From: Pseudovirgaria hyperparasitica | Lineage: Eukaryota | Direction: 5' to 3' (one strand) | Assembly: GCA_010093815.1 (NCBI GenBank) | Contig: ML996589.1 | DNA: 64,000 nucleotides | Part shown: in pieces, positions 2,966 through 57,229 of the stretch | Layout of the letters: each line of letters opens with the position of its first letter | How positions within the stretch are numbered: the first letter of the stretch is position 1 | Made by a program: the position numbers and the translations under genes | The notes under the pieces: model-generated | Told to the model about the DNA's origin: nothing | The model's input: only the letters and a program-made list of their open reading frames with translations | The model's database searches: none

Positions 2966-2999
2966 TTTTAAAGTTATAAGTATAAAAGAAAGTACTATA

Positions 3000-8904: not shown

Positions 8905-9011
8905 CTTCCTTAGAAAGTTCGAACTTAGAACTCCCTTAGAAAGTTTAAACTAAGAACCCCCTTAGAAAGTTTAAACTTAGAACCTCCTTAGAAAGTTTAA
9001 ACTTAGAACTT
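8905..9011. repeat. ~23-bp tandem repeat (ccttagaaagtttaaacttagaac-like), ~4-5 copies
   Basis: Direct reading of repeated units; probably in the gypsy 3' untranslated region. Confidence 0.75.
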
Positions 9012-9212
9012 TAAAATTTAACTAAAAAAGAGACTTAGAAAAATAATTTACTAAGAGAAATAGACATTAAAAATCGGTACTAATTAGTATAGATTAGTAT
9101 AGATTACTAAAGAGATAAAAGAAGTTATTATTAAAGAAAGATAAAATTAAGAAAGCTAAAAGAAAATATAAAGATCTATATAGATCTATATAAACTTATA
9201 CTAATCTATCTA

Positions 9213-9440
9213 CACGTGCTGCCTAAGGGCAAAACAACGGTAATACAGGCTGTAGGCTAATAGGCGTACCCTATGGCTGTATACTCAAGACGAAACAGAG
9301 GTTCAACGAGATGTAGTTATAGACATAAGGAAGTTTTTCCCTATAGGCTTTCTTCTTATATAGTGGCTTAGACTAGAGGAGGCATAGGCCTATAGAGTAC
9401 TACTCTACCTAGTTATACAATATTATTATTATTATTATTA
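9213..9440 (+). mobile_element. Short 5'-truncated LINE 3'-end insertion (copy C family)
   Basis: Reverse complement of ~11470-11695; (TTA)n tail; 17-bp TSD ttatactaatctatcta at 9196-9212 and 9441-9457. Confidence 0.85.
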
Positions 9441-10996: not shown

Positions 10997-11136
10997 TGTT
11001 AGGCACGTGCCTACCAGTTAATTATACATGTATGTAGTAGTCGTATATAAGTAGTGTACTCCACCCTTGAAGTAGTAGCTTTAAGATTCGGTCCTTTTGG
11101 TATAGTTGGTTGGTGCGTAGAGCCCGCCTTCTTATA
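10997..11136 (+). mobile_element. Solo LTR of the same family as the TRIM LTRs
   Basis: Starts tgttaggcacg, matches 7860-8011 with a small deletion; 5-bp TSD gtagc at 10992-10996 and 11137-11141. Confidence 0.85.
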
Positions 11137-11466
11137 GTAGCTTCCTAAAGGAAGGGGATAATTATTAGGACTTAGCCTTAGATATAATCTAATCTATATA
11201 TACCTTAGCTAATAGAGTTAGAAGATAGCGTAAAGGATAGTAAATAGTTATATACTAGATAGATTAGTATTCCTTTATATATATACTCTTAGATTTCTAC
11301 TAAAAGGGTTTAGTAGTAATTTATTCTATAATAGAATATACTCTATTATTCTAACTAACTATACTACTATCTAATAATACTATTCTTATAAAGATCTTAA
11401 TATATTAACAAGAGTAATATAATTATTACCTTATTATTCTTTATATTCTAATCTATTATATCTATA

Positions 11467-16748: not shown

Positions 16749-19499
16749 TCTATTATATCTATATATAAATCTATAACTCTAGTACTAAAGAGTCTAATAA
16801 CTCTACTAGAGACTATTATCTATAATTATATATATTTAAATGTAATTATCTAAGCTAATCTCTACTTAGGGAAATTTTCTTCTCTTAAAGATAGCTTAGA
16901 TAGAGAGAATAGGTTAAGTTTAAAGTTAATAGATATGTTTATTATTAATAAGTTTCTTAGGTTCCTTCTCTTTCTTTATATAGGACTTATTCCGACTTTT
17001 TCTATTTATTATATATTTATAAGGAAGGTAGTAAAGGTAAAAGAGGTAGAAGAATAGTATAGAGAACGATATAGAGGATAATATAGAGGCCGAGAGTTAA
17101 TAAGGTAATAGAATTAAAGTAAAACTTTAATAAGGTTAGTATAGAAACTATAGTTTAGAAAAGAGACCTGTTTTTTATTAAAATATAATAGTTTTCATTA
17201 ATAAAGAGGTGTTTTAAGGCTTTTATAGTAAAGTACTAGACTTATAATCTATTATAAGTAGAAAGTAGATATAATTAAGGTTATTAAATATATTCTATAA
17301 TTATATATAGAGAACTAAGTTCTAGGAGATAGAGTCGAAGCTATTTAACCGTTTAGACACTAGTCCCGTTTAGGAAGTAGTGTCTCTTACTTAAAGTGCC
17401 TTCCGATAATAAGTTTCTTTAATCGACTACGCGATTTCGTCTAGCTTTGTTAAAATAGAACTTAAAATTAGACTACTCTTTGAATACGTGCTTTTTCCTC
17501 CGTACGTTAATTTCTAACCTCTTAATAATCTTTAAATCTTCATCCATTCCATTTTAGAGGTTATCCTAGAAAGCTTCCTTATATTTATGATTTTTAAGCC
17601 AAATAGTAGTATCTACTTTGAGTGTAAAGTTGTCGAAAAAGTGTTCTAGATCTTATAGACTTTACATTAGTAGCTAGAGTAGATGGTTGTTTATAAGCAT
17701 GCCTTATAGTTGTTCCACGAGTGTTACATCTACTTGTCGCTCGGCTTAACCATCTATATACATTCCTCGCTATTGATGTAGGGCACTCCTACTAATGTCG
17801 ACCGGAAGTCTCGACCGGATCGAATACTATAATAGGCCTCTCTTTAGGAGTAGAAGGAAGCTATATAGAATGATCTAATGGACTTGAACTTGGTATTCGA
17901 GCGGCATTTCCCTACGACTTAGTGTTTGTAGTAGTTAGGGGAGACGATAACTCGGAGGCTTTAGAGCTCCGAACTGGACCTACACCTCTTCCAACGCATC
18001 CTACAGTGGGACACCAAGTTTCTAATACTATAGGTCGGCGTTTGCCACGACTACGAGCTTTGAAAAGTACCACAAACTCACACTCGGCTGCATGTCTCTA
18101 GGACTGCAAGAGATGGAATCGTGTGAAATGGTTCAGATTGACCAGAGAAATCGAGAGGATATCAAGGTCAAATGTAGTCGTCTGGTAGCTGCTGTGGTTA
18201 CTTAGGCTATCTCATACATGATCTGAGCCGGGCTAGGCTACAGAGTAGTATGCACAGGCGAGGCGTACATTGTTCTTCATGTGCTAGCAGATCCGTAAGG
18301 GATGTACACTGTTCCCTGTCGGTGCCAGAGGTACATGTGTAAATGGAGACTAGATGGACACATTGGATCGGGAAGACCGTTTGCATCTTACTACGGTAGA
18401 ACAGATGCTAACTTTTACACTACTTGCGTTATAGGCGAAGCCGTGGCCTTCGGAGTGGAGAGACGAAGCGCTGGCTGGGCTTCAGACATGGAAGATCGTC
18501 TACCAGGACCTGAGAAGCGGGAGTCGCGAACTCTAGCCAGTGCTCGCACAGTTATGGGATTCTAGTTGCCTACCATTTTAAGATTGACGCGAGCTTTGGC
18601 GCAGAGGTATAGGAGATAAGATGAAGAATTACAAGTGAGAGTATATAGTAGAATCCCTACCAAGTCGTCGATGACAGCGGCGATGAACTCTAACTAGAAA
18701 CATATGCGGACTTTAAGTGTTATAGTAAGAATAGGAGAATATACATCTAGACCAAGTCGTATCTAAAGCGAAATTGACTTTGACGAAAGATTGTACGGGC
18801 TACTAGATCCTCTCCTCTAGTATACACACCCTTTAAGAAAGATAGCTACTTAAATAGAAATGCTACCTTAGCCGTGTGGACGAAATTGAAGGGATGTTCC
18901 GCGATGTTTATCTACGCATCTTAGGAACTAGAATCCTTGAACAAGAATTAACCTAGATAGATATGCAAAGCTCTAGGAATGTACTAACTAGAAATATAAC
19001 TAGCCTATTGATTATTCCATCGATACTTGGTCGGACGAAGAGGTACCATTCCATTATAGTTACCCTAGGACTGCTACCGCTGTTCGTATATATGACTTTA
19101 AATGTTCTCTTCGTTATATAATCGAGGTTAAGATTAAGTTTCGATTCCGACGGAAGTTTAGCGGTAAGCTTGGAGAATTAATAGTATATATAATTTTCTA
19201 TCTGGCAGGAGAATGTCAATTCATTACCGAACCTACATTGTAGATCTCTTGTCCGCTGGATGAGACTTCGATAGCATGCAAACTTCTAACATGAAATGTA
19301 GACGAGTCCTATAAAGATTGTCATGCGGAGTGGGGGTTTAAATGCCAAAGCCTTTGTTAAACCATTTAATAATGTTATTAATAATTTTATCGATGTTTGT
19401 AAGAAACGAAAAATTAGTAGCGTTCATTCTCGTCTCCAATTTTCTTAAGATTAGCCATTATATCTTACTAAATCCACGAACAGTACGATAATGAGAGAG

Positions 19500-23344: not shown

Positions 23345-24656
23345 TCATAGCATTTGCCGTCCTAGAGCTCGTGCAACCTGGCGCTCACGCCTAACACCTA
23401 TGATCTCCACCATGGTTTGCTTATCAACTTTCGGGGCCGTCAGTTCAGGTGTCTGCGACACGAGCCGGGCTCGCTTGGCGACCTCAACACGCATGTCCCT
23501 CAGTTCCTCCTTGACAACCCTCCAGTCCACCCTACACACCTCTAGCTCACCTACACTGCTACTATGGGCCTGTGGCTCCCCGACATGCTTTCCCATCTCC
23601 ATGATATAGTCTGACACCATCTTCTTCTCTAGGTCCTCAACGCGAATGAAATTAGAGGGATATTCGCAGTAGATCCAGCCAGCCCCATCTGGGCAAGAGA
23701 ACGAAGACGGGGTCCATTTCAGGTTTGCCATAGAGGTCAGACCTTTGGGGATAGACAGGAGTTTCGGTTTGCTGGTGTTCATATTGGCCGGTGCTGGCAG
23801 GGTGCGACGCTTAGCTGAGACTGTGCTCAACATGTCATTTGGCGGAGTCATGCGCTTGCGCACAGCTGGCTGGGGTTGCTTTTGTGGCTCCTGGTCATCG
23901 TCGCCTAGCTGGTCGATCAGCCTCTGCCTCTTTCGTGGCTCTTCCACTGTCTGATGGAGATCTGGCTTCCCCGCCTTCGGCGTTTTCTGTTTCTCTCCTG
24001 ATCCACACTGGTTGCCTGGCTTTTCCGTATTCCGTACAACTTCCAGCTTATCTCGTTTCGGCTCGATCTTAGGGTTTCCTGCCACCTTATCAAGCCGCCT
24101 CAAAACCATATCCAGCTCATCGGCCTGAATCTCCAGCTGCTTGGCCATTTTCCCAACCGCTACTTCAAGAGCAGCAATGCGAGCATCTTGGTTCATGTCT
24201 AAAAGGACTCTAGATTAGCTAGGAGTGCACGGAGTGGATGGCATGCCGTACGGGTGCTTTGGCTCGTGGTGACTTGGTCGGGACGTGACGCCATCTGGTG
24301 TTTCGCAAAGGCTGTTTGAACGTGTTAGACGTTTCCAGAGACGACGAAAAGAGTGAGATACCCGTGGCTTCTGCGGCTGCTCTATCCGCCCATTGTACAC
24401 TTCGCTGCGTCTGCGATTTGTCGCGTGTGTCGTCGTCGTCGTCGTCACCTGCAGCTCCATTCGGGGACGTGACTGGCGACTTAGGTATCTCCGCCATAAC
24501 AATATCCAGAGATTCTAATAAGTTTTGATGCGATGGATGAGAGTGTCCAAATTCAGGCGTGTATTTGATATATCGCGGCGCGTCGCGTCGCGTCGAGGAG
24601 TTCCCATCGTTATATCCATGCGTATCATTCATTCTAGCGTGCCTGGTCTTACGCAT
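23345..24656 (-). CDS. Hypothetical protein (orphan family, paralog 1); main ORF 23345-24196, upstream part possibly intron-split or frameshifted
   Basis: 283-aa ORF with coiled-coil N-terminus and core LLSIPKGLxSMANLKWTPSSFSCPDGxGWIY shared with 41058-41510. Confidence 0.55.
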
Positions 24657-31500: not shown

Positions 31501-33245
31501 ATTTAGTATAACTACTTAATATATAAGAATTAAGTAGAATATAGTATATAGAACTTAGAGATAGATAAGCTATATTATAGTCTAATATAGCTTATCTATT
31601 TACTATTTATTTATATCTTATTAATACTTACTATAATATCTACTTAATCTTATTAAAGCGCCTTAAATATTCTTATCTATTAGAAAGCTAAAATACTTCT
31701 ATATTATAGACTACTTTAGAAATAAGCCGCTTCTACTTCTTAGAGTATATAGATATATTATACTAGTTTAGAGTATTAGAGCTTTCTCTAGTACTTAGTT
31801 CTATCTATAATTACTAGATCTAAGTTTCTTCTCTTTTCTTCTAGCTTTATAATTAATTTTAGATATATATATATATCTATTAATAGTAGTCTATAGTAAT
31901 TAGTATTATTAGTTATAATTAAGATAGAAGAATCTAGAAGCCGTTAAAGTAACTAGATAGATAAATAGCTAAGCATTTAAATACGGAAGATAGGGACCCA
32001 TACTACACTATGCTAGTGTACCGTATGCCCGCCTAGATTCCAATCATACTTCCGTTACCCCACTACTTACCCGCACGCTACGCCACTTCTATATGCACGC
32101 TAAAGTACCGCACGGCATTTTAGGTCCACTATCACGAGCATCTCCATTCTATGACATGGATACGCATATATCCATATACAAGCCGCAAAGCTACTAACAC
32201 CTATGGCACTTATTTACTAACGTTTGAGTGCTAAGCTACGTAGAGCCTTAGGAACCTAAAGCATGACTATACATACTACCATGACCATGCCCAAGTTTAT
32301 CTATGTGCAGAATCAGGCTTGACATTGCCGGTGGGTACGGGATAGTATAAGTATAAGTATACCCTTAATAGTTTCATGGTTCTAAATGACCATAGCTTGA
32401 CGAGCACGCCACGTACATCTAGAGGACAGGGAACCAGCTGCAAGCCACCATGAGAACATCGTCCAGTTAGACTTCGTCCGGCAATCGCGATCGTGGGAGA
32501 AGTCAGGAATCGAGAATTCTTGTAGAAAGTCCATAATGCAGGCCGGTGAACACGGGAATGCCAGTTGGGGGTAGTTGATTGCGCGAATTTCGGTGAAGGC
32601 ATGTCTCATCAGACAGATGGTCGACCGGAAAGCAGGGCTTCTGTATGGCTTGAGTGATTGCATGTATGCGAAGCTCGTAACGAATGGGACAGGTGTGCAA
32701 TATTTAGATATTCGATTTGCGGACCAAGAGAACCGTTGCCTCGCCTGGTTTTCCTGGCTCCACACCAAGTCCCATTTATTAAGCTACCGTTGGTTGTGAA
32801 ACAGCATAGAGCCCGACAGAACTTGCAGACGGGTAAGGTAACGTTAAGAAGGACCCTGTCAATATATGCCAGCGGGATACTTCGTCTAGGGAGACAACAG
32901 AAGCCTTGTAGGATATCATCCAGTGGAAATGGAGTCCGGATGTCCCCCTTCACCGCAAGTTCGACAACGGCTCGCCAATGGATCTTACTCGAGGTCATGA
33001 GAATGCATGTACTCCCCTGTGATTAAATTCTCAAATCAAACGAAGTTTATAACGAAAAAGAAATACTTCTTGATGTCCTTAGGCTACTGTGCTGCGTGCA
33101 GAGTATACCCGGCCGTACCAGCCGACATTACGGTCGTATCAAGCCCAAATATTGCCCATTTCCGCTCTTCCTCGCACTTTTGCTTCACTCAGATTTAGCC
33201 TATATTACACTGTTCAGAACCCTCAACGAGCGCCATATCAATCCT

Positions 33246-36200
33246 ATGGATAGGTTTAGTCAACACAGGCGGGGAAGAGGATTCGGGAGCGGATTCGGGA
33301 GCGGATTTGGGCGGGGCAATCCAGGGCAAGGCAACAGGGAAAGAAACGAGGCCAGCCTCAGGCCATGTCATTATTTTTCAAAGAATGGCTATTGTAAGTT
33401 TGGCTTATCATGCAAGTTCTTCCATGGTCCGTCAATCGTAGATAGAGATAGGAGACAGAATCATGGAGGACGACCGCCCGGATCTAAGGAGACACCCGAG
33501 CAACAACAGGCCAGAGTGGACTACAATGCGTGGCGCCGATTCATCAAGGTATCACCTACTAGAACTGACGAGAGAACAATGGAACAGCTTTGGAGTGATG
33601 GTCTTGCCATCTTGAATGGCGACAATCTAGAATGGCAGCAAATGTTGCCACGCGATCTGGACAGCGACGACTATCAAGGCAGGGAACATATTAAGGATGT
33701 ACTAGAGCTGCGATCAAGCCCAGGAGAAGAGCACAACTTCGTTCGCATTGCGCGTTCGTTTCTCTCCGTCATCACTCATCGGGCTCTCCTAGACTGCCTC
33801 TCGGTTGATACCGCTGTTGGAGCGCTTTATAATTTCGTGAGTGGCGCGAATGGGAACCGTGCGATTGCATTCTTCCAGCATCTTTCCCAAACGCTAGAAG
33901 AGTCTTATTTAAAATCCGCCGACTCTATCGCAACGATCCAGACTATTCTACAGACCATGCTGGTAGCACTTCGAGAGCTCCTTGGGAGAGAGCCTCGCGC
34001 TAGATTGAACGAAAACATTACATCTTTACTAGATCAAATGGAAGAGACTACCAAGTTAATCGCTAGAGATACACGCGATTTGATCATGCCAATCACCCTA
34101 GGTCAGATCAATGAAATCCGCGCTATTGTTGCACGAGCAAACGGACTTCTTGCACAAGATGATACTAGACAGATGAAAACTATCACCAAGTCAGCATATC
34201 CCCGCAACCTGGTAATGCCACAAGATCGCCATGATAACGACAAGCCTGATATTGCTAATGTCAAGATCTTTCCGACTTCTGAGGAAATTATGAGCGATGC
34301 GATTGACTTTTTACCCTCCACCGATCTCGACCAACCTCACTTCCTTCAAGACAAAGTTGAAAGACATATCGATACATGCTTTCGTCTTCTTCGTCATGAC
34401 ACATTTGGAGAATTGAAATCGGCTTTAGGGTCATTCTTGCATACCGTACAAGGCGATCCGGCTTGTATTAACCATCCAAAGCTTAGTCTCGGGGATATTC
34501 GAGCTTTCCACTACTTGCATGCGTTCATTAGCTATATCTCATTTGATCGTCGGCATGGTCTCGAAATGAATATAACATTCAGACAAATCCCGCAGCTACG
34601 CCAGAAATCAGCGAAAGAGAGACAAAAATGGTGGCAAGACTCAAAAAGACTTGGCGAGGGTGTTCTTCTCTCATTAATCGCAGTTCAAGACGATCAAGTT
34701 CAGCACTTATTCTTCACGGTTAGTAGAAGAGATACGGACACGGGACACGATGGGAGCCTTACAAAGGAAAATGCTCAATGCACCATTACTTTAAAGCTGG
34801 TGGCCACCGATCAGACACAAGTAGCTTTGGCCGTTTCCTTGAGCTGCCAAAAGACACAGGGGATCCTTCTAGAGTTTCCTGGTACCATTCCCGCTACGTT
34901 TGTACCGATTCTCGAGAACCTAAAGAGAATGCAAAAGTTTAGCAGGCTACCTTTCAAAGACTGCATTCTCCCTGACCAAATTGACGACACCCGGAATCGA
35001 AAAGGCGGCAGCACTCTTGACATACTAGCCCCACTTTACGCTCGTCATCCTGGATTTGCTTTCAACTTGAAGTCCATTCTCAAGATAGATGCGGTGGGAA
35101 ACGATGACATCTACGTGCTACCAACATCTTCTCCTAATGACGCAGCTATCATTGACACAGTTGAAGCTCGCACCGCACTAGATCGCGGCCAGAGTCAAGC
35201 CTTGATATCAGCGTTGACGCGAGAATTTGCATTCATCCAAGGCCCGCCTGGTACTGGAAAGTCGTATCTTGGTATTGAGTTGATGAAGGTTTTGATGGAC
35301 TGTAAATCAAGAGTAGAGTTGGGGCCTATCATTGTGGTGTAAGTTGGGGTCTCAAATCTCAAGTGCTTGGCTAACGATAGACAAGGTGCTACACAAATCA
35401 TGCGCTCGATCAGTTTCTTGAGCATTTAATTGACATCGGAGTCAAAAAGACCATTCGTATCGGAGGTCAGAGCCATTCCACTGTTCTGGAAGAGCACAAC
35501 CTTCGAAAGATTTCCCAAAGCGAAGGCAAAACAAGATCGGAAGGTTTCCTCCTTCACAAGTCATACGAGCGTTTAGAGCAAGAGTGTGAGAGAATTAAGA
35601 AGAGCCTAGGGCGCCTTCATGGCACTTTTAGACATGCCAACTGGTCGAATTTGCAATATCACCTCATGTACAGGTACTCAACGATTCATGACCAATTTAG
35701 TCGATTTGACGAAGACGGTTTTGAGCGGGTTGGTAAGCCTCTTTTTGATGCCTGGATTCCTCCTACTAGCAATGATCGCCCAGTCACGGAAAATGGCAAG
35801 ACGGAACCGGCGGCCACCTTGATCAACCACATTTTAGACAAGGCAGCAGCCAATGTCCATTCCTTGGCACAGGAGGAGAGGCAAATGCTGATGCGCTTTT
35901 GGTGTCAAGAGATCCATGATACTGCTCTCGATGATCTTTATGAAAGGTTGAAAATGACAGAGTCCGCGCAAAAGCAACTTGCCGACATCCATGACGAAGT
36001 TGATCGGCGAGTGCTTCAAGCTGCGGACGTCATTGGAATTACGACAATAGGACTAGCGAAAAGGATTTCCACGCTGCAGCGTGTGCGATGCAAGATTGTG
36101 ATCTGTGAGGAAGCTGGAGAAGTCATGGAACCGCACATGATATCTGCGTTGCTTCCGACGGTAAGTCGCTCCCAGAAACAGCACTGTGGCAGTGTAAGCG

Positions 36201-39200
36201 TACTAACGACAACATTTATAGGTTGAGCATCTGATCCAGATCGGAGACCATGAACAACTTCGTCCGCAGATAAACAACTATGGTCTTTCGCTCGAAAGCA
36301 AGCAGGGTGAGTTGTACCAATTAGATCGAAGCCAGTTTGAAAGGCTGTCCGTTGGGCAACCTGGGCGACCTCGGATCCCTGTAGCTCAGCTAAACGTACA
36401 GCGACGTATGCGTCCTGAGATATCGAAGTTGATACGGGAAACCATCTATCCTAGTTTGATCAATCACGACACAACCATCGACCTTCCAGACGTCGTTGGA
36501 ATGCAGAAGAATGTATACTGGCTGGATCATGACCATTTGGAAGAGGGAAAAAACTCCGACATGCACCAAAAGTCTCATTCTAATATTTGGGAGGTGGAAA
36601 TGGTGCACGGATTGATCCGCCACATTGTTCGACAGGGTGTCTACAGAAGCAGCGATATCGCTGTCTTGACACCTTACACTGGACAGTTACAGAAGCTTCG
36701 CTCAGTGATGAGAAACGACTTTGAGATCGTGCTTAGCGACCGAGATCAAGAGGCACTTGATAAGGACGGATTTACCGAAGGCGACGCAAGTCTTCAACAA
36801 GGAGCTGCCGGGCAGCAGTCGTCCTCCTCCAACGCCGTTTTGGAAAAGAAGAAGCTCAGTGATCTCTTACGGATTGCAACTGTGGACAACTTCCAAGGTG
36901 AGGAGGCCAAGGTGATCATTGTCTCTCTTGTCCGGAGCAATAAAGAAAAGAAAGTCGGATTCCTCAGGACGACAAATCGAATCAATGTTCTTCTCAGTCG
37001 AGCCCAGCACGGACTGTACCTGATTGGTAACTCTGATACATATTCAAACGTTGAAATGTGGCAGAAAGTTATCAACATGCTTCGATTAGCTGACGCAGTC
37101 GGAACAACTTTGGGGCTTAGCTGCCCGCGCCATATTGAAACCGAGATCATAGTCCACGAGCCTCATGACTTTCCCAAAGTCAGTCCAGAAGGAGGATGTC
37201 GTCTTGCATGTCTCTGGCGCTTGCCTGGATGTGGCCATATGTGCCAGTCTAGATGTCATTCGGAAAGTATGCACAGTGCATTCTTGTGCGCACAGCCTTG
37301 TCAAAGGCTACTTGAACCATGCGGACATGCTTGCCAGAAGCCGACGTGCGGAGAGAATTGCGGAAGATGTCACATCAAGCTGAATAATGTGCCGCTTCCT
37401 TGCGGGCATTTCAAAGATAATGTACTCTGCTTCCAAGCACAGAATCCTGGTCTACTCTGCTGCTCCATTCTGGTTGAGAAGCTTGTCCCATCCTGCGGAC
37501 ATACCGTAAAAGTGACCTGCTCAATCGACGTGGCGTCGGAAAGATATCGTTGCTCAAACCCATGCGCCTCAACATTACCCTGCGGCCACAACTGTCCGGG
37601 ATCGTGTGGTAGCTGTAATGCCAAGGGCGTTGAAGGCAAAGTGTCGACGTCACACCAGAAATGCACCAAATTGTGTAGCCGTCGATTTGGCACCTGTAAT
37701 CATTCCTGTCAAAAGGCTTGTCATGGAAAAGACTGCGGTCCTTGTCTCTCTCCCTGCGAAGTCCGCTGCCAGCATTCGAAATGCACCCTGCGCTGCCACG
37801 AACCATGTGCGCCATGCATTGAAAGATGCACATGGGAGTGCCAACATCGTGGACGGTGCACCATGTAAGTTTTATGTCTCTGCGAGCTTGTTATCTTCGA
37901 TCAACTGAGCTGATGCTGACCTTTTTCTTTCTTCTCAGGCCGTGCTCTGCACCTTGTAACAGACTGCCCTGTGATCAGCGTTGCTCGAAGAGTCTTCCTT
38001 GTGGCCATCAGTGTCCAGGTATATGTGGTGAAGCATGCCCAACCGACTACTGTCACGCCTGTGGCTCCAAGCCAGATGCCAGAGTTGATCTTCTGGAAAT
38101 GAAAAGCTACAGCGAAATCAAGATCGACGAGACTCCAATCGTGGTTCTCGGATGTGGGCATTTTTTCACAGCAGAGTCGCTGGATGGTCTTGTGGGTATG
38201 AGCGAAGTTTATACTACCGATGTGTTTGGAGACTTCACTGGCCTAGCAGATATCAGCGGCTCTTTAGCGATGAAAGTACCCAAGTGCCCAGACTGCCAAC
38301 AGCCAATCATGCAATACATAACTCAGCGATACAACCGAGTCATCAACAGAGCGGTGATTGATGAAATGTCAAAAAGATTCTTGGTTAATGGTAAGACTGA
38401 GCTCCAAGAGCTGGAAACGAACGTTGAGGATCTTGAGTCAGGCCTCGTGGAGTCGAGGGAAAACATTAAGGACTCTGTAGAAAACTTGACGTCAAAGATT
38501 CGAACCCGATATCATGAATCCAAGAAGCTACAAAGTAAGCTTGAAGATTTCCTCCGGAACGTTGCAGATCGACATCAGCCGGCTCATAAACTCCACGAGG
38601 CCGTTGTCCAGGCTAGTAGGAGCAACAGTACAGACGATCCTGCATCTATTGCTGATGCATTTGGTTCACTGAGTATCCACCGAAACAGCATTGGCCCCGT
38701 CGAGCGAGACCGCAGAGTCACCTTTGGGGGTCGCGTTCTGCAGATGAAGGCGGAGTCCATCATACTAGAAGACAAGTTCCAGATCATAAAGAAGCTTCGA
38801 TCCGGTCCATCCAACGAAGACGCGAAACTCTCCGGCGGAAATCCACAAGATCTTACGAAATCTTTCATGAAAGCTTGCGCATTACTAATAAAGGACTGCG
38901 AGATCGAGAAGCTTCCTAAACTCGCAGTAGAAGCTTCAATCCACTTCGCCACAAACGCACAACTCTACCGCTCATCTCAATTGTCCGGTGAAGATAGAAA
39001 GAAGGCTACCGAGTACGTAGAAGAGGCGAAGGATTTGCTGAAGCAAGCGCATGAACTATGCGAGCAACCCTTTCATAATGCAAATCAACTGAAAACTTGC
39101 GTCGAGGAAAACATCCAGATTCTTGGAAGGGAGTGGTACGAAGAAGTGACTGCCAAAGAAGTTGCCGAAATCAAGAAGGCCATGGTAAGTGGTAGAGGAG

Positions 39201-39428
39201 GCATCGCAACACACTCGGGTCACTGGTACAATTGCGCAAACGGACATCCTGTAAGCATCACAGTTAGCAAATACACAGTGTAGAGGCTAACACCCCAGTT
39301 AGTTTGCTATCGGTGAATGCGGAATGCCGATGCAACTTGCGCGCTGTCCGGAATGCGGCGCGGCTGTTGGAGGATCAAGTCATCAGGCTGTCGAAGGTGT
39401 TACCAGAGCCGCACAAATGGAAGAATAA
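33246..39428 (+). CDS. ZNFX1: ZNFX1-like protein: CCCH finger, UPF1-like SF1 helicase, NF-X1 zinc-finger array, C-terminal RZ finger; introns 35339-35385, 36161-36221, 37865-37938, 39251-39302
   Basis: CHYFSKNGYCKFGLSCKFFH; RHDND; IQGPPGTGKS; CYTNHALDQF; EEAGE; IGDHEQLRP; QRRMRPEI; TVDNFQGEE; RINVLLSRA; many C/H repeats; HWYNCANGHPFAIGECGMPMQLARCPECGAAVGGSSH. Four canonical GT-AG introns restore one frame. Confidence 0.93.
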
Positions 39429-40959: not shown

Positions 40960-42360
40960 TAGTCTGATAGCTCGCGCAGCCTGGCCCTCTTGTGCAGCGC
41001 CTATCCTCTCCAGCATGATTTCCTCGTCAACCTTAGAGTCTTCACGCCTGGTGTTCTTCAATCCACTCTGCACACCTCCAGCTCCTCATCACCGTGTTGC
41101 TCCGCATTGCCCATATACTTTGCCAATTCCAAGACATGGCTGGACATCACCTTCCTCTGCAGATCCTTGACGCAAATAAGGTACGAAGGATATGCGTAGT
41201 AGATCCAGCCATGACCGTCGGGGCAGGAGAAGGAAGACGGAGTCCATTTCAGGTTGGCCATTGACTTCAAGCCTTTGGGAATGGACAGGAGTTTGGTTTT
41301 GGTGCCGGCGGTGTTGGCCGGTGCTGCAGGTGACAAGACGCGTCGCTTTGATGCTGAGGTCCCCTCGCTTGACACGTCGCTTGACCGTATCTTGCGCCCC
41401 GGTATACGCTGCCTGTCCTGCTCTTGCTGTCGTGGCTCCTGGTCTTCATCGCCCAGCTGGCCAGTTAGCTTATCTAGGTGCTTCGTCCACTGTGGCCTGT
41501 TCGCTTTCACCTGTGGAGGATCTGTCTCGTGCGTGTCCTGCGTGTCCTGCGTGTCCTGCGTGTCCTGCGTGTCCTGCGTGTNNNNNNNNNNNNNNNNNNN
41601 NNNNNNNNNNNNNNNNNNNNNNNNNNNNNNNNNNNNNNNNNTGCGTGTCCTGCGTGTCCTGCGTGTCCTGCGTGTCCTGCGTGTCCTGCGTGTGCTGAGT
41701 GTGCTGCGTGTCCTGCGTGTCCTGCGTGTGCTGAGTGTGCTGTGTGTCTTGCGTGTCCTGCGCTTCTCCTGCCTTGCACAGACGATCTGTATCTAGTATT
41801 CGCGTCGTCATCGTCTCTTCCGCCGTGTCTCGAGTGGCCGGCGTGGATCATTGCTTTTCTACCCTTCTAAGCCACTTGAAGACTAGTTTTAGCTCATCGG
41901 CCTACATCTCCGACTATTAAGCCATCTTCCCTAACATGGCTATCAGAGAATCCATACGGGCATCTTTGCTTGGATCTGGTTTTGGAGATACTGCCGTACG
42001 GGATGGGGTGCTTTGGCTGGTCGCGATTTGGTCGAGAGGTGGCGCCGTAGGACTCGCAGCGGCGGCTTAACTATATTAGTCTTTTGAAATAGAGGCTGGA
42101 GGACTCAAGAGAGTAACGTACTTATGACAGCTCGCCCAACTCCCTCTAACGTTCCTGTGGCTTCCAGGCTACTTCAGCATGCATGGGGGACACCACTGGA
42201 GCCTCCTATAGGCTTGCTGTATTGGTGTTTGGCGTGCTAGGAGTGAATGTAGCATGCTGGAGCGTGGAGTGTCTGGGTGTTTGTGTGGTGCAGTTGTAGC
42301 GTCGCGTTGCGTCGCCTGTGACAGGAGATCGACTGGATCTAGCCTAGTGACGTTTTTTTG
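40960..42360 (-). pseudogene. Paralog 2 of the 23345-24656 orphan gene, with internal QDT repeat; disrupted
   Basis: Shared core with 23345 ORF; upstream TSRPNRDQPKHP matches TSRPSHHEPKHP at ~24250-24290; frame changes and stops. Confidence 0.6.
41529..41762. repeat. 9-bp tandem repeat (tgcgtgtcc)n, reading (QDT)n on the minus strand; spans gap 41582-41641
   Basis: Direct reading. Confidence 0.9.
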
Positions 42361-48076: not shown

Positions 48077-51000
48077 ACAAGGCCTAAATGCCGGGCCGAC
48101 CTCGGGCGCAGCGTCGAAGGTGGTAAACTTTCTGCTTGTGCTTACTAAGACCCTGTATAGCCGTATCAAGTCTTCAAGCCAGCGAGGTCCACATGTCTCT
48201 CGGATGTCCGCTTGCCATTGGCAATTACTGTTCTTCATACCAACGGCTCCATTGCTGAGACCCATGCTCATTCTGTTCGAAAGATCCCGAGAAGCACTCG
48301 TCCGAGGGCTATAGTATACGATATCATCATACATCTCCCACACGGAGAACACGAGTCTCGACGTGGCTTTTATCCAGCAAGCATCTATCTCACAAGAATG
48401 AGCATCATGTCGTCCAGTGATATCTCTTTGTATGCCAGTGTCCAGGCGTCTTGCGTACTTGTGTCATCGATAAATTCAAATGTCGGAGGACTCGCGCCTC
48501 TGCGAAGAAGCCAGTAAATATATCCTTGGGAAAATATGTCCCACCGTTAAGCTTGCGAAATGTGACGAGGCCATGGTTCTGCACAGCCTCTATACGGTGA
48601 TTAGGAATGTTCGTCATGTACGCGTACAGTCCCACCGAACTTATGATGGTGGTCGTCCGCATGTCTGAGCGGAATTCACGAGCTCCGTGATCTGTTAACA
48701 CTGAGGTCCATTATAACCCAATGGAGGGAGACGCGACTCACCTCTTACCCAATAATCCATCGCGTTCATGCTAACAATACATGCTAACAATCCTCTGATC
48801 AGCATGGTACAGCCTTAGGGGGCCCCAAGTTGTATCTATCATGCTCAACGATACGGAGCCAGGTAACGCTCATGTCAGGTCTCCTCTGAGACGAAGAATA
48901 TACTGATTGCTTTGACTGTGTAAGCGGTGATGATACTGAAGGAGTCAAGTATAATCATCCTCAGGCGGATTGTAGACGTCATTCGACACCTGCGGCTGGT
49001 AAACCATTTCGCCAGCCAAGCTTCGGCATATGGATGGAGCGTGCTGGTAACCTTCTTTTCTAAGCTTCTAAAAGAAATTAGCGTCCTGCAAGATCTCATC
49101 TTAATAGAGGATTTGGTATTTACACGACATATAAGTAATGTCGAAAGTGACGCAAACCGTAAGCATAAAATAAGCAGCTAACCAGCCTCCACTCACCTAG
49201 GCTTTGCAAAATGTCCGCCATTTTCAGTCCTTGAACAGACATGCTATAAAAGAGAATCAAAGACTACGCACGTTAGCTCTAAAATTCGTGGAGTCGTTGC
49301 GACAGGAATGTAATGGTAGTAGTTGGTGGGGATGGTTGGAGTTGGTCGTGTGGTCCTTCGCAGGCGAAACAAAACAAGTGCACTTCTAGGGTCTTGGCAT
49401 GCATTTGATTTTTATGAAATGCATAAGTCCTGTCTACTACCGAACCGTAGCTAACAATTAGACGTAGTTCCTTTCGTGGCGCGTAACATGCGCGATGCAA
49501 TCAAGGATTAGAAGTTAGACAAACGTGCATTGACAATTCAGTCTACGATCTTCACCTATCATTCATTCTCTGCCAGTTGTTCAAGGGTGACTGCTACAGT
49601 CATTTCGCAAGCAGTGATCGCGGTAGAGTGCAAATTTGTTGAAGATACCATGCCTCGACCACGGTCTGGGACAGATTGTAAAATACTTCTAGTAGCCTCA
49701 AGACATTAGGACTCGCCAACAGTTGTCAATGAATCAAAAGATACACGATTCGGTGACGTGAACGAGTGTTCGGCGTCCTCGTCTTACTACTCGTCAGAGT
49801 CGCACTCTCGTAATCAACCTCCATCTACGCAGTCCAAGATCAACCCAAGTGCTCCTCGAAGTCGTCATCCCACCACGTCCATTCAACTATCCCTTTTCAT
49901 ATTAGGCCACCTATGCTTACTCTATACTTCTAATAGTTCCTCTTTCTTACATCGTCCCCTGCAAGACCATTCGAGAGAACGCTATCTAGACAGGCGATGA
50001 ATCTCTTAAGATCTCACCGCTGACGTACAAGTTACAACGAGAGTTACAGTTCAAGAGAAAGGCAATATCTAGCATGTCAATGCCCCTTGGTCTTGACGAG
50101 AACAAGAGAGAAGAATAGGCCACTGCTAGGACGGTTGTTCCCTATGCATTTGGTCATGAATGAACTCTACTTGCTCCTGACGGCCAAAACACCACCACCG
50201 TTGCAGTTACACCGCTCTCACTTGATGAGTCTGAGTTAGAAGAATTGGGAGGTATACCGCCGCTTGTCACATCCTGCTGTGAGTTACGCGTTTCTACTGT
50301 ACAATTTCCCCTAGCTTATAGGCGACAGGACAGCTTGTGAATAACTTCCATATGGTACGATGTGCGAAAGGGAAATCCGACAGGGCTCCAACCTTGGGCA
50401 TTCATATGGTTGGTACTATGCATTTTACGAACTCCTTCAATATACACCTCGTCTAGGAAATGACGGATCCTCGACCCGACATCGATAGCACGTGGGTATT
50501 TCGATCCTGCTTGGAATTGTACGTCGATGTCTTTAGCCTTTTCTTCTTCTGCTTTAAGTTTATGGTATTCGTGCCACGGCCAATCGCTATGTACAAGAAG
50601 TCATTATCAAGTATCAACTACCGTTAAAATCACTTGTTCCAGGGAGAGCCAGCGACTGCGGTATCAAGCACAGTCTCTGTCTTGTGGAGAACGACATCAT
50701 TATGATGTCGATTTTACTGATATCCATGAATTGGACTGCTGGTCGCCCTCCTAACAATGTCCATGTTGTTGGGCTTGCCTTTGGATACGCTCTTCTTCGG
50801 CTCCTTTATTGGTACACCATCTTCTGCGGGATCCTGAAACAAGGACAACCTATAAACTATATCAAAGTGTGAACTCAGTCGTATCACCGTCGGCACAAGT
50901 CATCCGCCATCGGTTGTGTTTAGGATGCCGATTGCGCATATAAAGTCGATTGTCGGCTGCTTGAGCTTCGTCGCTATGTATTTCCAACGGATGAGATAGT

Positions 51001-52536: not shown

Positions 52537-54415
52537 TTAGTAATACCGCGAGAAGACTACTGGCAGCGCTACTGTCACCAAAGTCATCAAGACGTCGCCG
52601 CACGCCAGGAAGTTCGAAAACGTGCCCTTGTCGTACAAGACGCTCCCAGCCTTTCTCGAGATCCCCTTAATCTACGTCATTATCGACCGCTCGACGTCGT
52701 ACTTTAGCACCCTCACGCCCCTCCTAGTGCTCACCCTCTGCGCGTTAATGTTGGGGTTGATTGCGATGTACGACTACTTATCGAGCTCTATCTTATATAG
52801 CTCCTCGAACCTCCCTACCCCTACCGTCACGATTAACTTCCTCTCGTCTACTAGCCTGGGCCTCGGCCCGCTCTTACACTACCTTCCTTATCTTAATCGA
52901 CATCTGCGTGACATCGTATAAGATCGTCGACAAGTTGGTGTTCCCTAAAGCGCTTATGAATGCCCTTATAACTATCTTAGGCATGTGGGGTTTCTTCTTA
53001 CCCATCCTCTTTATAAGGTCCTTAAGTAATACGGAGTCGTTCTCGAAGGGGACCACGGTTATCTCGTAAATGATGTTATCCACCATGCTCTTAGGGGCTT
53101 TATAGCACGTGACCTTGTCCTTTAAGTTAGTCGCGACGAGAGGGCGGTTCTTACATAATAAGTTAACCGTGGGCTGCTTTAACCTAAGCGTCTTATAGGG
53201 CTTCACGCAGACTATGCCGTCGAATTATAACCTGTAGCTGAACGTTTTGAGGACCTCCGTGATCGAGCTCTAGAATTTTATCGTCCTTATCTCCGGAACG
53301 CAAGTCTCGAGCCCATGCTCCCCGAGGTACTACCTAGCCTTATTCTTAACGCGCCCGTTCCCAGCGAGCATGTGGATGTACATGGGCATCCTATTAAGTA
53401 TCATCTCTACGACCAAGACGTCGGGGGTATTCGTAATCTGCATGAATAGTAAGTAGGTGCTCTTCATCCTGCACGTGACTATGATAAGGTTAGTATCGGA
53501 GGGTGATTATATAGCCGCCGTGGTAGTAGAACACATACATCTTTATGCCGTCCACCTTATGTATAAAGTACCCCTCGTGCCCATCGAGATTGGAGACGTC
53601 CACTATATTGTGGTCTAAGTTCCTCGCCTCGTTTATAGAGTCACGGTTGATCTACTTAGTTATCTTCGTGTGGCTCCCTAGGAAGGAGACGCTGTAACTC
53701 GTGATCACCCTTAAGTTGTTCGTTAAGTAGTCCTTCTCGAACTCTATCTCGCACGCGTAGCTGGTCCCTAGGTGGCCCTTATACTCCGTCGCGTTCGAGT
53801 GCGCAGTCGCCGAGCGCATGTTAATCTTAAGGGACTTCTAAGTCATACTCGTATAGGTCTACACCTTATAGATCGTCCCCTCGAAGTCGAACTCTAATAA
53901 GTTAGCTAGATGAAGCTAGGCATAAACTTAATCTTAGTCACGGGCACCTTCACGGTCTTCTCCCTAGCATTCCTGACCCTTACCTACACGTTCGTGTTAT
54001 ATGGCTCGCCCTACTAGAGTGTGTAGGACTGCTCCTTGTAGTTCGTGACTACCACAGCCCTACCGAGCTTCTTCTTCTCCACGTTCTTCCACACCGCTTT
54101 AGCCATCCCGCTGCTAAACCTCATCTCGATCTTTTCGTAAGGGTCGTCCGACATGGAGGTGATGTTGCACGCCCTCGTCGGCTCCACAGGCCCGTCAATC
54201 AAGCGCGCCTTGAACGAGTTCTTGTTGTATAGCCCGGTGTCGTTCATCTTCGTTATCACCCTCCTTAATGAGTCCGACGGGCCTCTGCACTTACATATTA
54301 TCATCTCGGCCGGTTCATCCGCCCTAATCATCCTCATGTGCCTGATCTCGGCCTTCTCGGGGTCCTTGCTCAATATGCCGAGCTAGTAGATGTTGGGTCG
54401 GTTGGTGGCCTCCAT
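52537..54415 (-). pseudogene. Trifunctional mRNA capping enzyme (TTM RNA triphosphatase + guanylyltransferase + cap methyltransferase), RIP stops and ~3 frameshifts
   Basis: Manual translation: EKIEMRF (~54116-54136), YACEIEFE (~53736-53760), HKVDG (~53547-53561), DVLVVEM, MYIHMLAGNG, FDGIV (~53210-53224), LRLKQPTVN (~53162-53188), LIVTVGVGR and YIAINP (~52750-52840). Confidence 0.8.
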
Positions 54416-56222
54416 CGTGTACTAGTCTTATTATCGTACCGTTCTTCTAGATGTAGTGGTAGTAGTTAATAGGCTACTTCTAGTCGACCACGGTCGTGTA
54501 TGTAGACCAGTGTCGTATTGCTAGCGTGTGTCTACGAGCTACCCCTGACGCTAACTATTAACCTCGAGAACTACCAGAGCAGCTTAAAGACAGTCTTCCG
54601 CTACTAGAACTACGACCACTACAAGATGTGCCATATTAGCTATATTGAGTGCCTCGCGTGCAAGTAGAACATCTCGTCGAAGGTCATCTTGTGTAAGCAC
54701 GCGCAGCCCGGGAAGGTATACATTACGAACGACGAGCTGCGGTCGACCGACGTAGTCAAGTAGGTAGGTAAGAGCGCGAAGTGGTCGCTAGACCTACACG
54801 ACTACATGGACGTCATCACGGTCTATAACTACCAGCCGGCCTGCCCGAAGACCGAGTAGGACTATACGTGGGACGAGGACGTCGAACTAACGTAGTTCTT
54901 CTCGAAGTTCTAGGTCTGGCGCAACGAAGGGGTCTACAACACGACATACATGATCGAAAAATATAGCGCCATCTAGTACATGAGGAGGTTCGCATGCCTC
55001 GGTTGCTTTATAACGCCTAGAAGACCTTCTACCACTCCCCTACTAGACCATGGAGAATGGGACGCCCTTTACGGCGAGGGAGGTCCTGGTCTGAGGCGGG
55101 GTGGCCAAGTTCGTTAGGTCGGTACACAAGTACGTGTGGACCAACATCAACGTGGAGAACCTGAATGTGTACAAGGCGGACATTAACGACGCGAAGTCCC
55201 CAGTCCCGTGCAAGTAACACGACTACTGTCCCGGGCACTTGTGCTACGACGCGGACTTGGACAGCTACATGATACCATACGGGTTTGCCAGAGGCAATGA
55301 GGACACATATTCGGACAGTAGCTTGAAGAACCAGGCCGTCATGAGGTATGAGATCACGAACAGAGAGTTGGCGAACCACTACTACTCGAAGCTTGCGACT
55401 AAGCGCGGGATCTTAAGGAAGCAGAACAACGGCACCAGGCCCGTGAACAGCTTCAGGCTCGTCGCGTCGCCCCCCCTAGCGGTGTCGTTCAGGAATGGGG
55501 TGCCGTGGAAGTTGCTCGACCGCGGCTACGTGGAGGTCTCAAGGAGGGTCTTGTCGAAGGCGAACTTCATGCACCTCTCGCCCGACGGGTACTGCTCCGT
55601 GAGGAAGATCGAGGTGGGGGAGACGATCATCGTGGGGAGATGCCCATCGCAGGGTAAGAACAGCACAGTGCCGCTTAAGGTGAAGTTGGCGCCGGAAGGA
55701 AGGGGTGGACTCGATCGCGATCCCGTGGGAGCTCTGTAGACTAACGAACGCGGACTTCGACGGGGACGAGGTGTGGGGGTTGGTGCCTATGACCGTGGCG
55801 GGATCCGAGGAGGTGGAGAAGAGGTGGTTCGAGATGTGGGAGTCGAACGAGGAGCAGACCGTCTTCAACAACGCATACGAGATGGGGGTCAGGAGCAACG
55901 TCAGCAGCGAGGTGGACCCGGCCATGTTGACGACCATGACGGTCAGGGAGATGTCCGCGCACAAGGGCGGGAAGAAGTACGACAGCATGATGCTCAAGCC
56001 TACGTCGTGGTCGCAAATGTATAAGGTCATGATGTCCAAGACCTACTGGCAGTCGTCCGTGACCAGGGGCGAGAACGGCATCTTCAACGTGTATATGGGT
56101 AGGAGCTCGTTGGCGGACCCCTACGGGTACATGAGAACGGGCATTATAATGGGGTGCTGCCTCAACGTCAACGACGACAGGGTAGGGATCAACTCTTACC
56201 AGATTCTCAAGGTCCCGAAGGC
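52540..56222. mobile_element. Endogenised fragment of a cytoplasmic DNA virus or virus-like element (capping enzyme + ORF X + RNAP subunit)
   Basis: Intronless, tightly packed, strongly C/G-ending codons unlike flanks; virus-type enzyme architecture; both ends appear truncated. Confidence 0.75.
54451..55040 (+). pseudogene. ORF X: Cys-containing hypothetical protein of the same element, RIP-disrupted
   Basis: Reading VYELPLTLTINLENYQ...IECLACK*NISSKVILCKH...WDEDVEL...FACLGC; in-frame stops are TAG; same codon bias as neighbours. Confidence 0.55.
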
Positions 56223-56256
56223 ATTGAACGAAAAACAGTCATGTAGCGTGCCATAA
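55050..56256 (+). pseudogene. Divergent, compact Rpb1/beta'-like DNA-directed RNA polymerase subunit; frameshift ~55705, 3' truncated ~56222
   Basis: CPGH (55227-55238), KRGILRKQNNGTRPVNSFRLVASP (region C-like), GETIIVGRCPS (cf. NRQPS), NADFDGDE (55747-55770). Confidence 0.85.
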
Positions 56257-57229
56257 TGGCGAACCTGGAGTTGTGCGATACCGTACGGCGAAGTGCTATG
56301 AATCTATTGGTGAAAGTAAGACTGAGAAAGAGATGATACACCGGAATGGCACTTAAAGATGAATTCAGATTCGATTAAGCGAGGACAACAGGAGAGTCAG
56401 GCGATAAGAGATGATATCGAAATGCGACTGGAGTGCATGCGAGCAAACAAGAGACAAAAATATCTATGAGGCGTCATAGAACAAGTTGCTAAGCCAGTTT
56501 CGACGACCGTTAGAAGCAAGCCTTCATGACTAGGGGATCATGAGCGATGTTAATCAATCTCTTTCGGTCGTAATCTTCCATCAATAATAAAACATCTCTT
56601 TTAAGTTAAGACTGGCAACGTCGAGCCTCGCATATTACAGGTAGATTATCGTAGAGAAAACAATTCGATCACGCATAGACTTTAGAACCCTTATTCCAAA
56701 GCTTTTAAGCACCGAGGTATGGAAAGAGATAAACTAACTTGGACATGCTAAACCAATACTAATAGAACCTTTTCCAGTAGCCTCGTCGAATATCAAAACA
56801 AATGAAGGGGTATAGGATAACCCTGGCACTCGCTACGATTCGTCCCCCCACCGCATAAGCCCAGCCTTAGAGTTCGAAGCTAAAGTTACTTCTTAAGATA
56901 ATCTTAACGGGGATACTTCTACTCGAAAATGCGCTGGTCCTAAACGTGACATCGTCGAGAGTGGGGCTGAAGTCTTCAAGGCAGAAGCAGTTAGCAGCCA
57001 CATAAACGACACTGGTATTTCCATAGCCGCTTTGATATTAGCTCTGAAATACAGCGAAGGCCTAATGATTGAGTTTGTCGACAAACCTAGATTACTACAC
57101 AGTCTTATGGAGACGATCGAACCTCGCATTCTTAACCTTATTCGGCTTTTCAACGCCCCTGAATTACAGAGGTGGCAAGCTTAAGTAACAGAGGCGGCGC
57201 GCTTAAATAAGCGGCTATAACAAATCGAA

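Follow-up and report, generated by a model that had tools for sequence, protein, structure and literature searches.

A decayed, highly divergent beta'/Rpb1-like gene fragment in the genome of Pseudovirgaria hyperparasitica and its intact relatives

The beta'/Rpb1-like relic at 55050-56256

The window analysed in this study, i.e., a 64,000-nucleotide stretch of contig ML996589.1 of the fungus Pseudovirgaria hyperparasitica (GenBank assembly GCA_010093815.1), carries at positions 55050-56256 of its plus strand the remains of a gene for a beta'/Rpb1-like protein, the largest subunit of multisubunit RNA polymerases (RNAPs). Four Rpb1 motifs were located there in the expected order, namely CPGH (55227-55238), KRGILR (55401-55418), which corresponds to the K-x-G-x-x-R of Rpb1 region C, RCPS (55638-55649), which corresponds to the R-x-P-S/T of the barrel, and NADFDGD (55747-55767). 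In profile alignments, KRGILR is aligned with ‘KEGRFR’ of the archaeal subunit Rpo1N, and RCPS and NADFDGD with ‘NRQPSLH...NADFDGDE’ of the same protein. The segment HDYCPGH (55218-55238) represents the Cys/His zinc motif of the clamp (region A), for which the family consensus reads C-x-x-H-x-G-C-K-G-H. The cysteine of CPGH and the lysine of KRG are separated by 58 codons, as counted on the translation of the window. Both the order of the motifs (A, C, R.PS and D) and this compressed spacing had been pointed out in a first-pass annotation made from the sequence alone, and both were borne out.

The same annotation had treated 55050-56256 as one subunit gene, of which the homology stands but the single open frame does not. 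The first part of the relic (55050-55700, plus strand) comprises the N-terminal region with the clamp-like zinc motif along with the initial half of the catalytic double-psi barrel, and its stop-interrupted translation matches residues 5-212 of the intact homologue on locus L003 with 43% identity (tblastn). The frame opened by the ATG at 55050 meets a TGA at 55092-55094, and a second in-frame stop, the TAA at 55215-55217, lies immediately 5' of HDYCPGH and interrupts the motif in the window copy. A frameshift follows, in the form of four bases, AGGG (55701-55704, plus strand), between a glycine codon ending at 55700 and a valine codon starting at 55705, which encode adjacent residues in P0004, the nearest intact relative; the conserved reading past 55700 therefore resumes one base out of frame. 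The second part (55705-56256, plus strand) carries NADFDGD and approximately 165 further codons in the next frame and closes at the TAA of 56254-56256. Relatives run on for approximately 200 residues beyond this point, so that the C-terminal ~200 codons are gone from the window copy, which is without the region of the C-terminal half expected to hold the bridge helix and trigger loop, and the DNA 3' of 56256 has a changed composition (GC 44%) and no similarity to the family by tblastn. Two contig assemblies of DNA runs match 54300-56400 with no differences, which rules out an error of a single assembler as the source of the stops and the frameshift; these runs probably derive from the source sample of the window and do not represent independent support. 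Two further runs of unspecified kind under the same species label yielded no contig over this region, a result without bearing on expression. A working gene would be expected to hold a single open frame over the conserved length of the family, and this frame is broken in the window copy by TGA, TAA and the frameshift and has lost its C-terminus. The stretch 55050-56256 is a dead, 3'-truncated pseudogene fragment of a beta'/Rpb1-like gene.

A public gene model, EJ05DRAFT_490506 (P0003), covers 55269-56256 of this fragment as a hypothetical protein of 312 amino acids (aa) from P. hyperparasitica that is 99% identical to the window piece. The model begins 3' of both in-frame stops, and the zinc motif is consequently absent from it. 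Comparison of P0003 with the frames of the window showed that the model splices ...CPSQG onto VDSIAIP... through loss of a 49-nt GT-AG ‘intron’ at 55654-55702 (plus strand), thereby removing 16 residues of frame 0, K-N-S-T-V-P-L-K-V-K-L-A-P-E-G-R. These residues align one-to-one with a contiguous segment in all eight intact relatives of alignment A1, and the segment forms a barrel strand in the predicted structure of P0004 (residues 215-222, within a block with predicted local distance difference test (pLDDT) values of 75-83). Because the 16 residues are encoded contiguously in each of these relatives, the ‘intron’ is interpreted as a construct of the annotation by which the frameshift is bypassed, and the first-pass statement that the gene has no introns holds against the public model.

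The relationship to RNAP largest subunits was established both by profile searches and by structure prediction. An exhaustive HMMER search seeded with P0003 returned 79 clusters at E<=1e-3, with 15 reaching E<=1e-30, and intact relatives match the window at E ~1e-96 by tblastn. Full-length members of this family measure 592-627 aa, versus 1400-1700 aa for cellular Rpb1; the window copy covers roughly residues 5-400 of them, with 32-54% identity. Searched against the sequences of the PDB, a profile of nine members (A1) retrieved archaeal Rpo1N as its best match (E 7e-9), followed by RPC1, Rpb1, RPA1, plant NRPD1 and vaccinia Rpo147, with E-values from 7e-9 to 1e-3 overall and from 1e-7 to 1e-3 for cellular Rpb1 chains. 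The matched region spans K-x-G-x-x-R through NADFDGD, i.e., approximately 75-135 profile positions. The Pfam family RNA_pol_Rpb1_2 (cutoff 25.3 bits) scores 13.9 bits (E 0.066) on the window piece P0002, in the neighbourhood of NADFDGD only, and 28.0 bits, above the cutoff, on the intact gene L003:10013-11833. For structure prediction P0004 was used, which is 54% identical to P0003. Among ranks 1-50 of a Foldseek search of its AlphaFold model against the PDB, each match listed was the largest subunit of a multisubunit RNAP, the best at E 5.5e-7, and pairwise superposition on Rpb1 with VIA-align gave Z ~15, with an rmsd (root-mean-square deviation) between 6 and 10 Å over 200-260 residues. The barrel modelled in P0004 matches those of Rpb1 and Rpo1N, and residues ~40-283 superpose on Rpb1 residues ~20-540, a result by which the compressed spacing is also confirmed at the level of structure. 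Among predicted viral structures, giant-virus and poxvirus subunits were the best matches (E ~1e-7), no better than the cellular ones, and the nudivirus protein LEF-9 (433 aa) was found at rank 45 (E 1.2e-3). Taken with the profile alignments, the predicted fold indicates that the relic is a true, very divergent Rpb1/beta' homologue, and the first-pass description of a miniaturised, divergent subunit is thus well founded.

Neighbouring relics and their mode of decay

Two further decayed genes lie directly upstream of the beta'-like relic. The larger one, referred to here as gene X, occupies 52549-54370 on the minus strand, where residues 12-619 of the protein can be traced (tblastn E 4e-52 against L003) in four pieces distributed over three frames, with at least three frame changes and 12 in-frame stops (10 TAG, two TAA and no TGA); the sequence K-x-D-G-x-K-x-Y-V-F is retained near 53550. 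Between gene X and the beta'-like relic, at 54626-55049 on the plus strand, lies the relic of a small zinc-ribbon open reading frame (ORF) of the pattern M-C-x6-C-x2-C-x10-C...G, with six internal stops, all of them TAG. Its cysteine pattern recurs in ORFs that precede the beta'-like gene in L003, L006 and L007; the sequence match itself is weak (best tblastn E 0.089) and counts only jointly with position. The order of gene X (minus), zinc-ribbon ORF (plus) and beta'-like gene (plus) is that of the intact elements described below, and is kept in the window over at least 3.7 kb.

Repeat-induced point mutation (RIP) prefers CpA-to-TpA changes, by which CAG and TGG become TAG and CAA becomes TAA, while TGA is not produced. 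Of the 18 in-frame stops of gene X and the small ORF combined, 16 are TAG, two are TAA and none is TGA, and two of the TAG stops align with a conserved W-W pair. The RIP indices TpA/ApT and (CpA+TpG)/(ApC+GpT) amount to 1.36 and 0.70 in the gene X relic and to 2.06 and 0.55 in the small ORF, compared to 0.26-0.47 and 0.92-1.15 in the seven intact loci. Stop spectrum and dinucleotide indices of 52549-55049 thus fit the pattern that RIP would be expected to leave. For RIP to act, a second copy has to exist, or else the effect must spill over from repeats in the vicinity. Reassignment of TAG to a sense codon was considered for the TAG-only stops and rejected, since the standard code gives open frames in the intact relatives and the stretch contains frameshifts as well as the RIP bias. 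At the other end of the window, positions 1001-17000 form an AT-rich block (GC 35%) with indices of 1.67 (TpA/ApT) and 0.21 ((CpA+TpG)/(ApC+GpT)) and with 40-59 TAG and 31-56 CTA per kb; the first kb of the window holds 710 N. From this RIP-like character of the first 17 kb, RIP appears to operate in the Pseudovirgaria genome.

A second fragment of gene X, covering residues ~405-625, was detected by tblastn at 50363-50983 on the minus strand, 1.6 kb from the main relic. It contains three TGA, two TAA and two TAG stops, its GC content of 46% is host-like, and it has the look of having been inserted earlier or separately. Comparison of the two gene X fragments at the DNA level revealed no similarity, and a recent duplication was set aside on this ground; the pair is suggestive of insertion on two occasions or else of a duplication of great age.

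Other components of the element were sought in the window. No Rpb2-like partner was found by tblastn with five Rpb2-like genes of the intact elements (E<=0.01), in line with the first-pass statement that none was identifiable there, and a regular-expression search of all six frames of the window for beta-subunit signatures (GDK..., G[QNH]KG and PSRM) returned chance matches only. Similarly, tblastn of the element ORFs left no trace of a family B DNA polymerase (PolB) in the window, positions 50-64 kb gave no Pfam family at E<=0.1 when scanned in six frames with stops read as X, and Rfam and tRNA scans of the window returned nothing.

Elsewhere in the window, a large multi-exon gene at 33027-39283 (plus strand) encodes many Cys/His-rich repeats in addition to a P-loop helicase part; by eye we take it to resemble the NFX1-type zinc-finger helicases. 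The presence of this gene marks the flanks of the relic as ordinary fungal DNA. Furthermore, the ORFs at 23345-24214 and 41058-41792, both on the minus strand, share a near-identical long C-terminal stretch, ...LLSIPKGL-SMANLKWTPSSFSCPDG-GWIY..., a sign that the window may contain a repeated gene family; the latter ORF crosses an assembly gap (60 N near 41.2 kb).

Gene content of the intact elements

A scan of metagenome contigs yielded seven loci with relatives of the relic (L001-L007), five of which are long (L001, L003, L004, L006 and L007). All seven fetched loci have a GC content of 58-61%, are densely coding and are open under the standard code. Intact members of the beta'-like family are located on contigs of 21.5-26 kb, including a 25,116-bp contig of Fusarium albosuccineum that encodes KAF4460187.1. 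Shorter or fused beta' models were found in Pyricularia pennisetigena, Xylaria telfairii, Cryomyces antarcticus, Monosporascus, Conoideocrella, Cercophora and several assemblies of lichen fungi; for many of these models the contig measures 0.2-1.5 Mb.

In all five long loci a mini Rpb2/beta-like gene of 782-810 aa is present upstream of the beta'-like gene, the two being separate genes 2.8-4.2 kb apart. Its assignment is supported by Pfam Rpb2_6 (E 7e-8 and 2e-9) and by a match to Rpo2 in the PDB (E 6e-12). Gene X (724-733 aa) lies on the minus strand between the beta- and beta'-like genes and is followed by small ORFs in L003, L004, L006 and L007; it was not found in L001. A PolB gene is carried by L001 and L004, the two loci that reach it (PF00136, E 6e-31 and 1e-29), and among solved sequences those nearest to it belong to archaeal PolB, Pol alpha and Pol delta.

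Gene X is proposed to encode a capping enzyme of the vaccinia D1 kind, with a triphosphatase, guanylyltransferase and N7-methyltransferase fold. Its AlphaFold 2 model (pLDDT 83) matches the vaccinia D1 capping enzyme along the whole chain in a Foldseek search (E 3e-18, ~885 alignment columns), the next matches being single-domain structures of guanylyltransferases, triphosphate-tunnel triphosphatases and N7-methyltransferases. In an alignment of 25 sequences K-x-D-G is invariant (as K-A-D-G), and E-x-E-x-R and G-x-G-R motifs are also present; these three are presumably the marks of the guanylyltransferase, the triphosphate tunnel and the S-adenosylmethionine-dependent methyltransferase, respectively. 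In addition, a look-up in the ESM Atlas returned giant-virus capping enzymes with a score of 0.94, which is regarded as a lead. The predicted fold, these motifs and the Atlas lead together point to a D1-like enzyme.

Profile searches with the beta-like protein and with gene X returned 42 strong clusters and 39 relatives, respectively. The longest contig of a beta-like cluster measures 22-33 kb in 24 of the 42, is shorter in 15 and exceeds 100 kb in three, while no cluster falls between 33 and 100 kb. Source records name hosts from the Dothideomycetes, the Sordariomycetes and the lichen-forming fungi. Macrophomina phaseolina and Hortaea werneckii are among the named hosts of the ~25-28 kb contigs, the beta-like model of the former being located on a contig of 28,173 bp and KC359_g8918 of the latter on one of 26,847 bp. 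Models of element genes in Xylaria venustula, Dothidotthia symphoricarpi and Curvularia kusanoi are located on contigs of 0.1-1.8 Mb and, like the contigs above 100 kb, look like integrated copies. In X. venustula, P0125 (capping enzyme, 448 aa) and P0169 (beta-like, 699 aa) both have a longest contig of 101,351 bp, and they probably represent one integrated multi-gene copy that is better preserved than that of the window. The C. kusanoi model P0171 has 921 aa and lies on a 1.8-Mb contig; a PolB Pfam domain occurs in it alongside a beta-like match, and it is probably a fusion made by the gene caller across an integrated element.

Among the remaining ORFs few could be assigned. Pfam searches of 41 element ORFs identified RNAP subunits, PolB and one weak DUF4942 only, and PHROGs searches of 19 element ORFs gave no match. 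These searches, which cover approximately half of each element, returned no capsid or packaging-ATPase family; a Walker-A scan of the parts covered gave no credible ATPase, and neither a helicase nor an additional RNAP subunit was recognised in them by the three approaches. Of note, the ORF at L003:17368-18369 (plus strand, 333 aa), for which no Pfam match was obtained, contains motifs of the D-I-E ... H-x4-D type, which we assume to be reminiscent of DEDDh 3'-5' exonucleases. Conserved ORFs of 310-312 aa at L003:13315-14247 and L007:15222-16160, both on the minus strand, end in ...L-F/Y-G-N-G-S-M-Q-x-x-G-S-P, a signature that to our eyes resembles the repeat of the TATA-binding protein; if this were correct, the elements would bring their own initiation factor. 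Several of the longest ‘ORFs’ of these GC-rich loci, e.g., L003:3-1793, L007:8068-8898 and L007:20068-21154, have a nonsense composition rich in Arg, His, Asp and Val; they are probably antisense or off-frame artefacts of GC-rich DNA and were left out of consideration.

Origin of the relic and comparison with known systems

The relic is very probably a RIP-damaged fragment of an integrated DNA element, a virus or plasmid, belonging to a new family of such elements in filamentous fungi. The first-pass annotation had placed the gene with the polymerases of viruses or plasmids and not with copies of the host gene, a view that is substantiated by the 32-54% identity to relatives on dense 22-33 kb contigs and by the content of the five long loci, i.e., a mini Rpb2-like gene in five, a D1-like capping enzyme in four and PolB in two. 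A decayed duplicate or processed pseudogene of the host RPB1, RPA1 or RPC1 would show the motif order of Rpb1 equally well, but the cellular largest subunits are reached only at profile level (E 1e-7 to 1e-3, over ~75-135 profile positions), the whole-length similarity is to the 600-aa element proteins, and an element capping-enzyme gene flanks the copy, so that this origin is scarcely credible; high identity to the host RPB1 or RPC1, which the first-pass annotation had named as the finding to set against its proposal, was not seen. It is likewise unlikely that EJ05DRAFT_490506 is a live host gene, i.e., a barrel protein that was shortened and domesticated, contains one 49-nt intron and has a role other than the transcription of an element. 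Although a 312-aa model exists, its proposed intron is of the GT-AG type and of a length typical of fungi, and the part with NADFDGD is open over 190 codons at 57% GC, the model starts past two in-frame stops at the cost of the conserved zinc motif, and the intron would delete 16 core-strand residues present in eight of eight intact A1 relatives. Furthermore, the last third of the family protein is absent, the window offers no beta-like partner, and the 12 and six internal stops clearly mark the element genes next to it as dead.

Two known kinds of invader also need to be weighed as donors. Endogenous giant-virus sequences have been published from fungal genomes (PMC7017919 and PMC10640383), and a fragment of an integrated giant virus (Nucleocytoviricota) would agree with the fold-level matches to RNAP large subunits of giant viruses and poxviruses (E 1e-7 to 1e-5) and with the vaccinia D1 architecture of the capping enzyme. 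This origin is nevertheless quite improbable: integrated copies apart, the contigs of the intact relatives reach at most ~35 kb, the subunits measure ~600 and ~790 aa versus mostly 1100-1400 aa among the giant-virus and poxvirus large subunits listed, and the viral matches do not surpass the cellular ones. A scan of IMG/VR with the family alignment gave 129 pattern matches and no confirmed relative, and the lack of a capsid or packaging-ATPase family in the scanned ORFs points the same way, weakly given the coverage stated above. The functional set of the elements, i.e., their own RNAP, capping enzyme and DNA polymerase, equals that of the yeast-type cytoplasmic killer/helper plasmids, and plasmid-derived toxin clusters are reported from nuclear genomes of filamentous ascomycetes (PMC13348850). 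A nuclear-captured relic of such a pGKL2-like virus-like element is still highly improbable, as the RNAP of pGKL2 consists of a single beta-beta' fusion, K2ORF6p, and the small K2ORF7p, with most of the clamp absent (PMC6211774), whereas beta and beta' are separate here and a clamp-like N-terminus aligns with Rpb1 from residue 20. The PolB of the elements matches PF00136, Pol alpha, Pol delta and archaeal PolB, and with 58-61% GC and 22-33 kb the elements differ from the 13-kb helper plasmid described in PMC13348850, according to which the clusters in Pezizomycotina are without housekeeping genes and free elements have never been found there.

Several observations weigh against the origin preferred here, that of a RIP-damaged fragment of an integrated element. 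The beta'-like relic is itself mildly damaged (two stops, one frameshift, GC 57%) and its RIP indices, 0.88 and 0.88, are borderline; its 49-nt ‘intron’ has genuine GT-AG ends, and a shortened expressed product would be possible on sequence alone. A protein search with the beta-like profile returned no Pseudovirgaria protein among models of 430-1418 aa, shorter ones lying outside its scope. The AlphaFold model of P0004 is of middling quality (pLDDT 65, predicted template modelling score 0.41), the barrel being better, and the fold alignments barely reach beyond residue 319, while the model continues with a long helix (409-431) and paired helices (490-530). Regarding gene X, none of 25 members matched a Pfam capping family at E<=1, and its profile (A2) retrieved nothing relevant from the PDB sequences. 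Lastly, the relatives are taken to be free, cytoplasmic replicons from contig sizes and gene content only, and the contig ends of the fetched loci show neither hairpins nor long inverted repeats, several of them lying inside ORFs.

If the relic derives from an integrated element, as preferred here, the following course of events may be envisaged. The donor element would at some time in the past have integrated into an ascomycete chromosome. In its free relatives the 600-aa and 790-aa subunits would pair as a stripped-down two-barrel RNAP core, in which NADFDGD would hold the catalytic Mg, and this mini RNAP could transcribe the genes of the element independently of host Pol II, with the D1-like enzyme capping the transcripts. 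Such a scheme of transcription and capping would parallel that of poxviruses, other nucleocytoplasmic large DNA viruses (NCLDVs) and yeast cytoplasmic killer plasmids. After integration the fragment would have been struck by RIP and ordinary decay, and the polymerase would no longer be made.

Filamentous ascomycetes are not known to harbour DNA viruses or cytoplasmic DNA elements that possess their own transcription machinery. No description of elements such as those reported here was found in a full-text literature search, beyond whose reach lay most subscription journals and supplementary files. The elements encode an expression set that comprises separate mini Rpb2 and mini Rpb1 subunits, a D1-like capping enzyme and an alpha/delta-like PolB. 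On balance we lean towards an unrecognised lineage of autonomous, probably cytoplasmic, GC-rich double-stranded DNA (dsDNA) elements of 22-33 kb in filamentous ascomycetes, which would carry the smallest known expression set of the poxvirus/giant-virus style and would have integrated repeatedly. If they encode a capsid, they would represent the first dsDNA viruses with their own RNAP in Pezizomycotina, and if they do not, the first free virus-like elements there; in either case, they would offer a candidate link between yeast killer plasmids and Nucleocytoviricota. The relic itself is regarded as the fossil remains of a minimal RNAP of viral or plasmid kind, and the family to which it points may be an important new group. 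It has led to dozens of intact 22-33 kb contigs, i.e., a testable candidate group of mycoviruses or plasmids, and similar fossils could date the history of such elements in fungi. A natural minimal RNAP of the eukaryote type, with ~1400 residues in two chains, would furthermore be useful for defining what a two-barrel core requires, and EJ05DRAFT_490506 and similar fungal ‘hypothetical proteins’ would be better annotated as viral or plasmid relics.

Compared to known systems, the elements share features with several groups without coinciding with any of those considered. Like the elements, pGKL2 (K2ORF6p and K2ORF7p, with the capping enzyme K2ORF3p) combines a minimal two-barrel RNAP with its own capping enzyme and DNA polymerase. 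According to PMC6211774, the pGKL2 RNAP has retained the conserved regions and shortened the spacers between them, as is also seen in the elements, and its RNAP, capping enzyme and helicase associate in vivo. In the same text, beta and part of beta' of pGKL2 are described as fused in one protein of 974 aa from which most of the clamp is absent, whereas the elements possess separate proteins of ~790 and ~600 aa. Unlike pGKL2, they also keep a clamp-like N-terminus with its Cys/His motif, have a PolB of the PF00136 kind, a GC content of ~60% and a size of 22-33 kb, and occur in filamentous-ascomycete hosts.

Poxviruses and other Nucleocytoviricota resemble the elements in their separate Rpb1-like and Rpb2-like subunits and in a single-chain capping enzyme of D1 architecture, and vaccinia Rpo147 superposes on the P0004 model with Z 14.7 and an rmsd of 9.0 Å over 246 residues. 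Their subunits are about twice the size of those of the elements, however, and their genomes exceed 100 kb, versus ~25-30 kb for the elements; the similarity of the element proteins to the viral chains is no closer than that to archaeal chains, and the capsid, packaging ATPase, helicase and extra RNAP subunits of poxviruses and NCLDVs were not recognised in the element parts covered. The LEF-9 and LEF-8 proteins of baculoviruses and nudiviruses are beta'- and beta-like subunits that are similarly reduced, but the fold match of LEF-9 is far weaker than those of giant-virus, poxvirus and cellular subunits, and hosts and genome sizes differ. LEF-9 reportedly carries a variant of the NADFDGD motif, whereas the elements retain the canonical form. 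Finally, other nuclear integrations in fungi, i.e., the giant-virus regions and the toxin clusters described in PMC7017919 and PMC13348850, respectively, likewise represent fossilised genes of foreign DNA elements; the relic of P. hyperparasitica differs from these in that giant viruses and known killer plasmids are both unlikely as its donor, in that it preserves transcription genes, and in its RIP signature.

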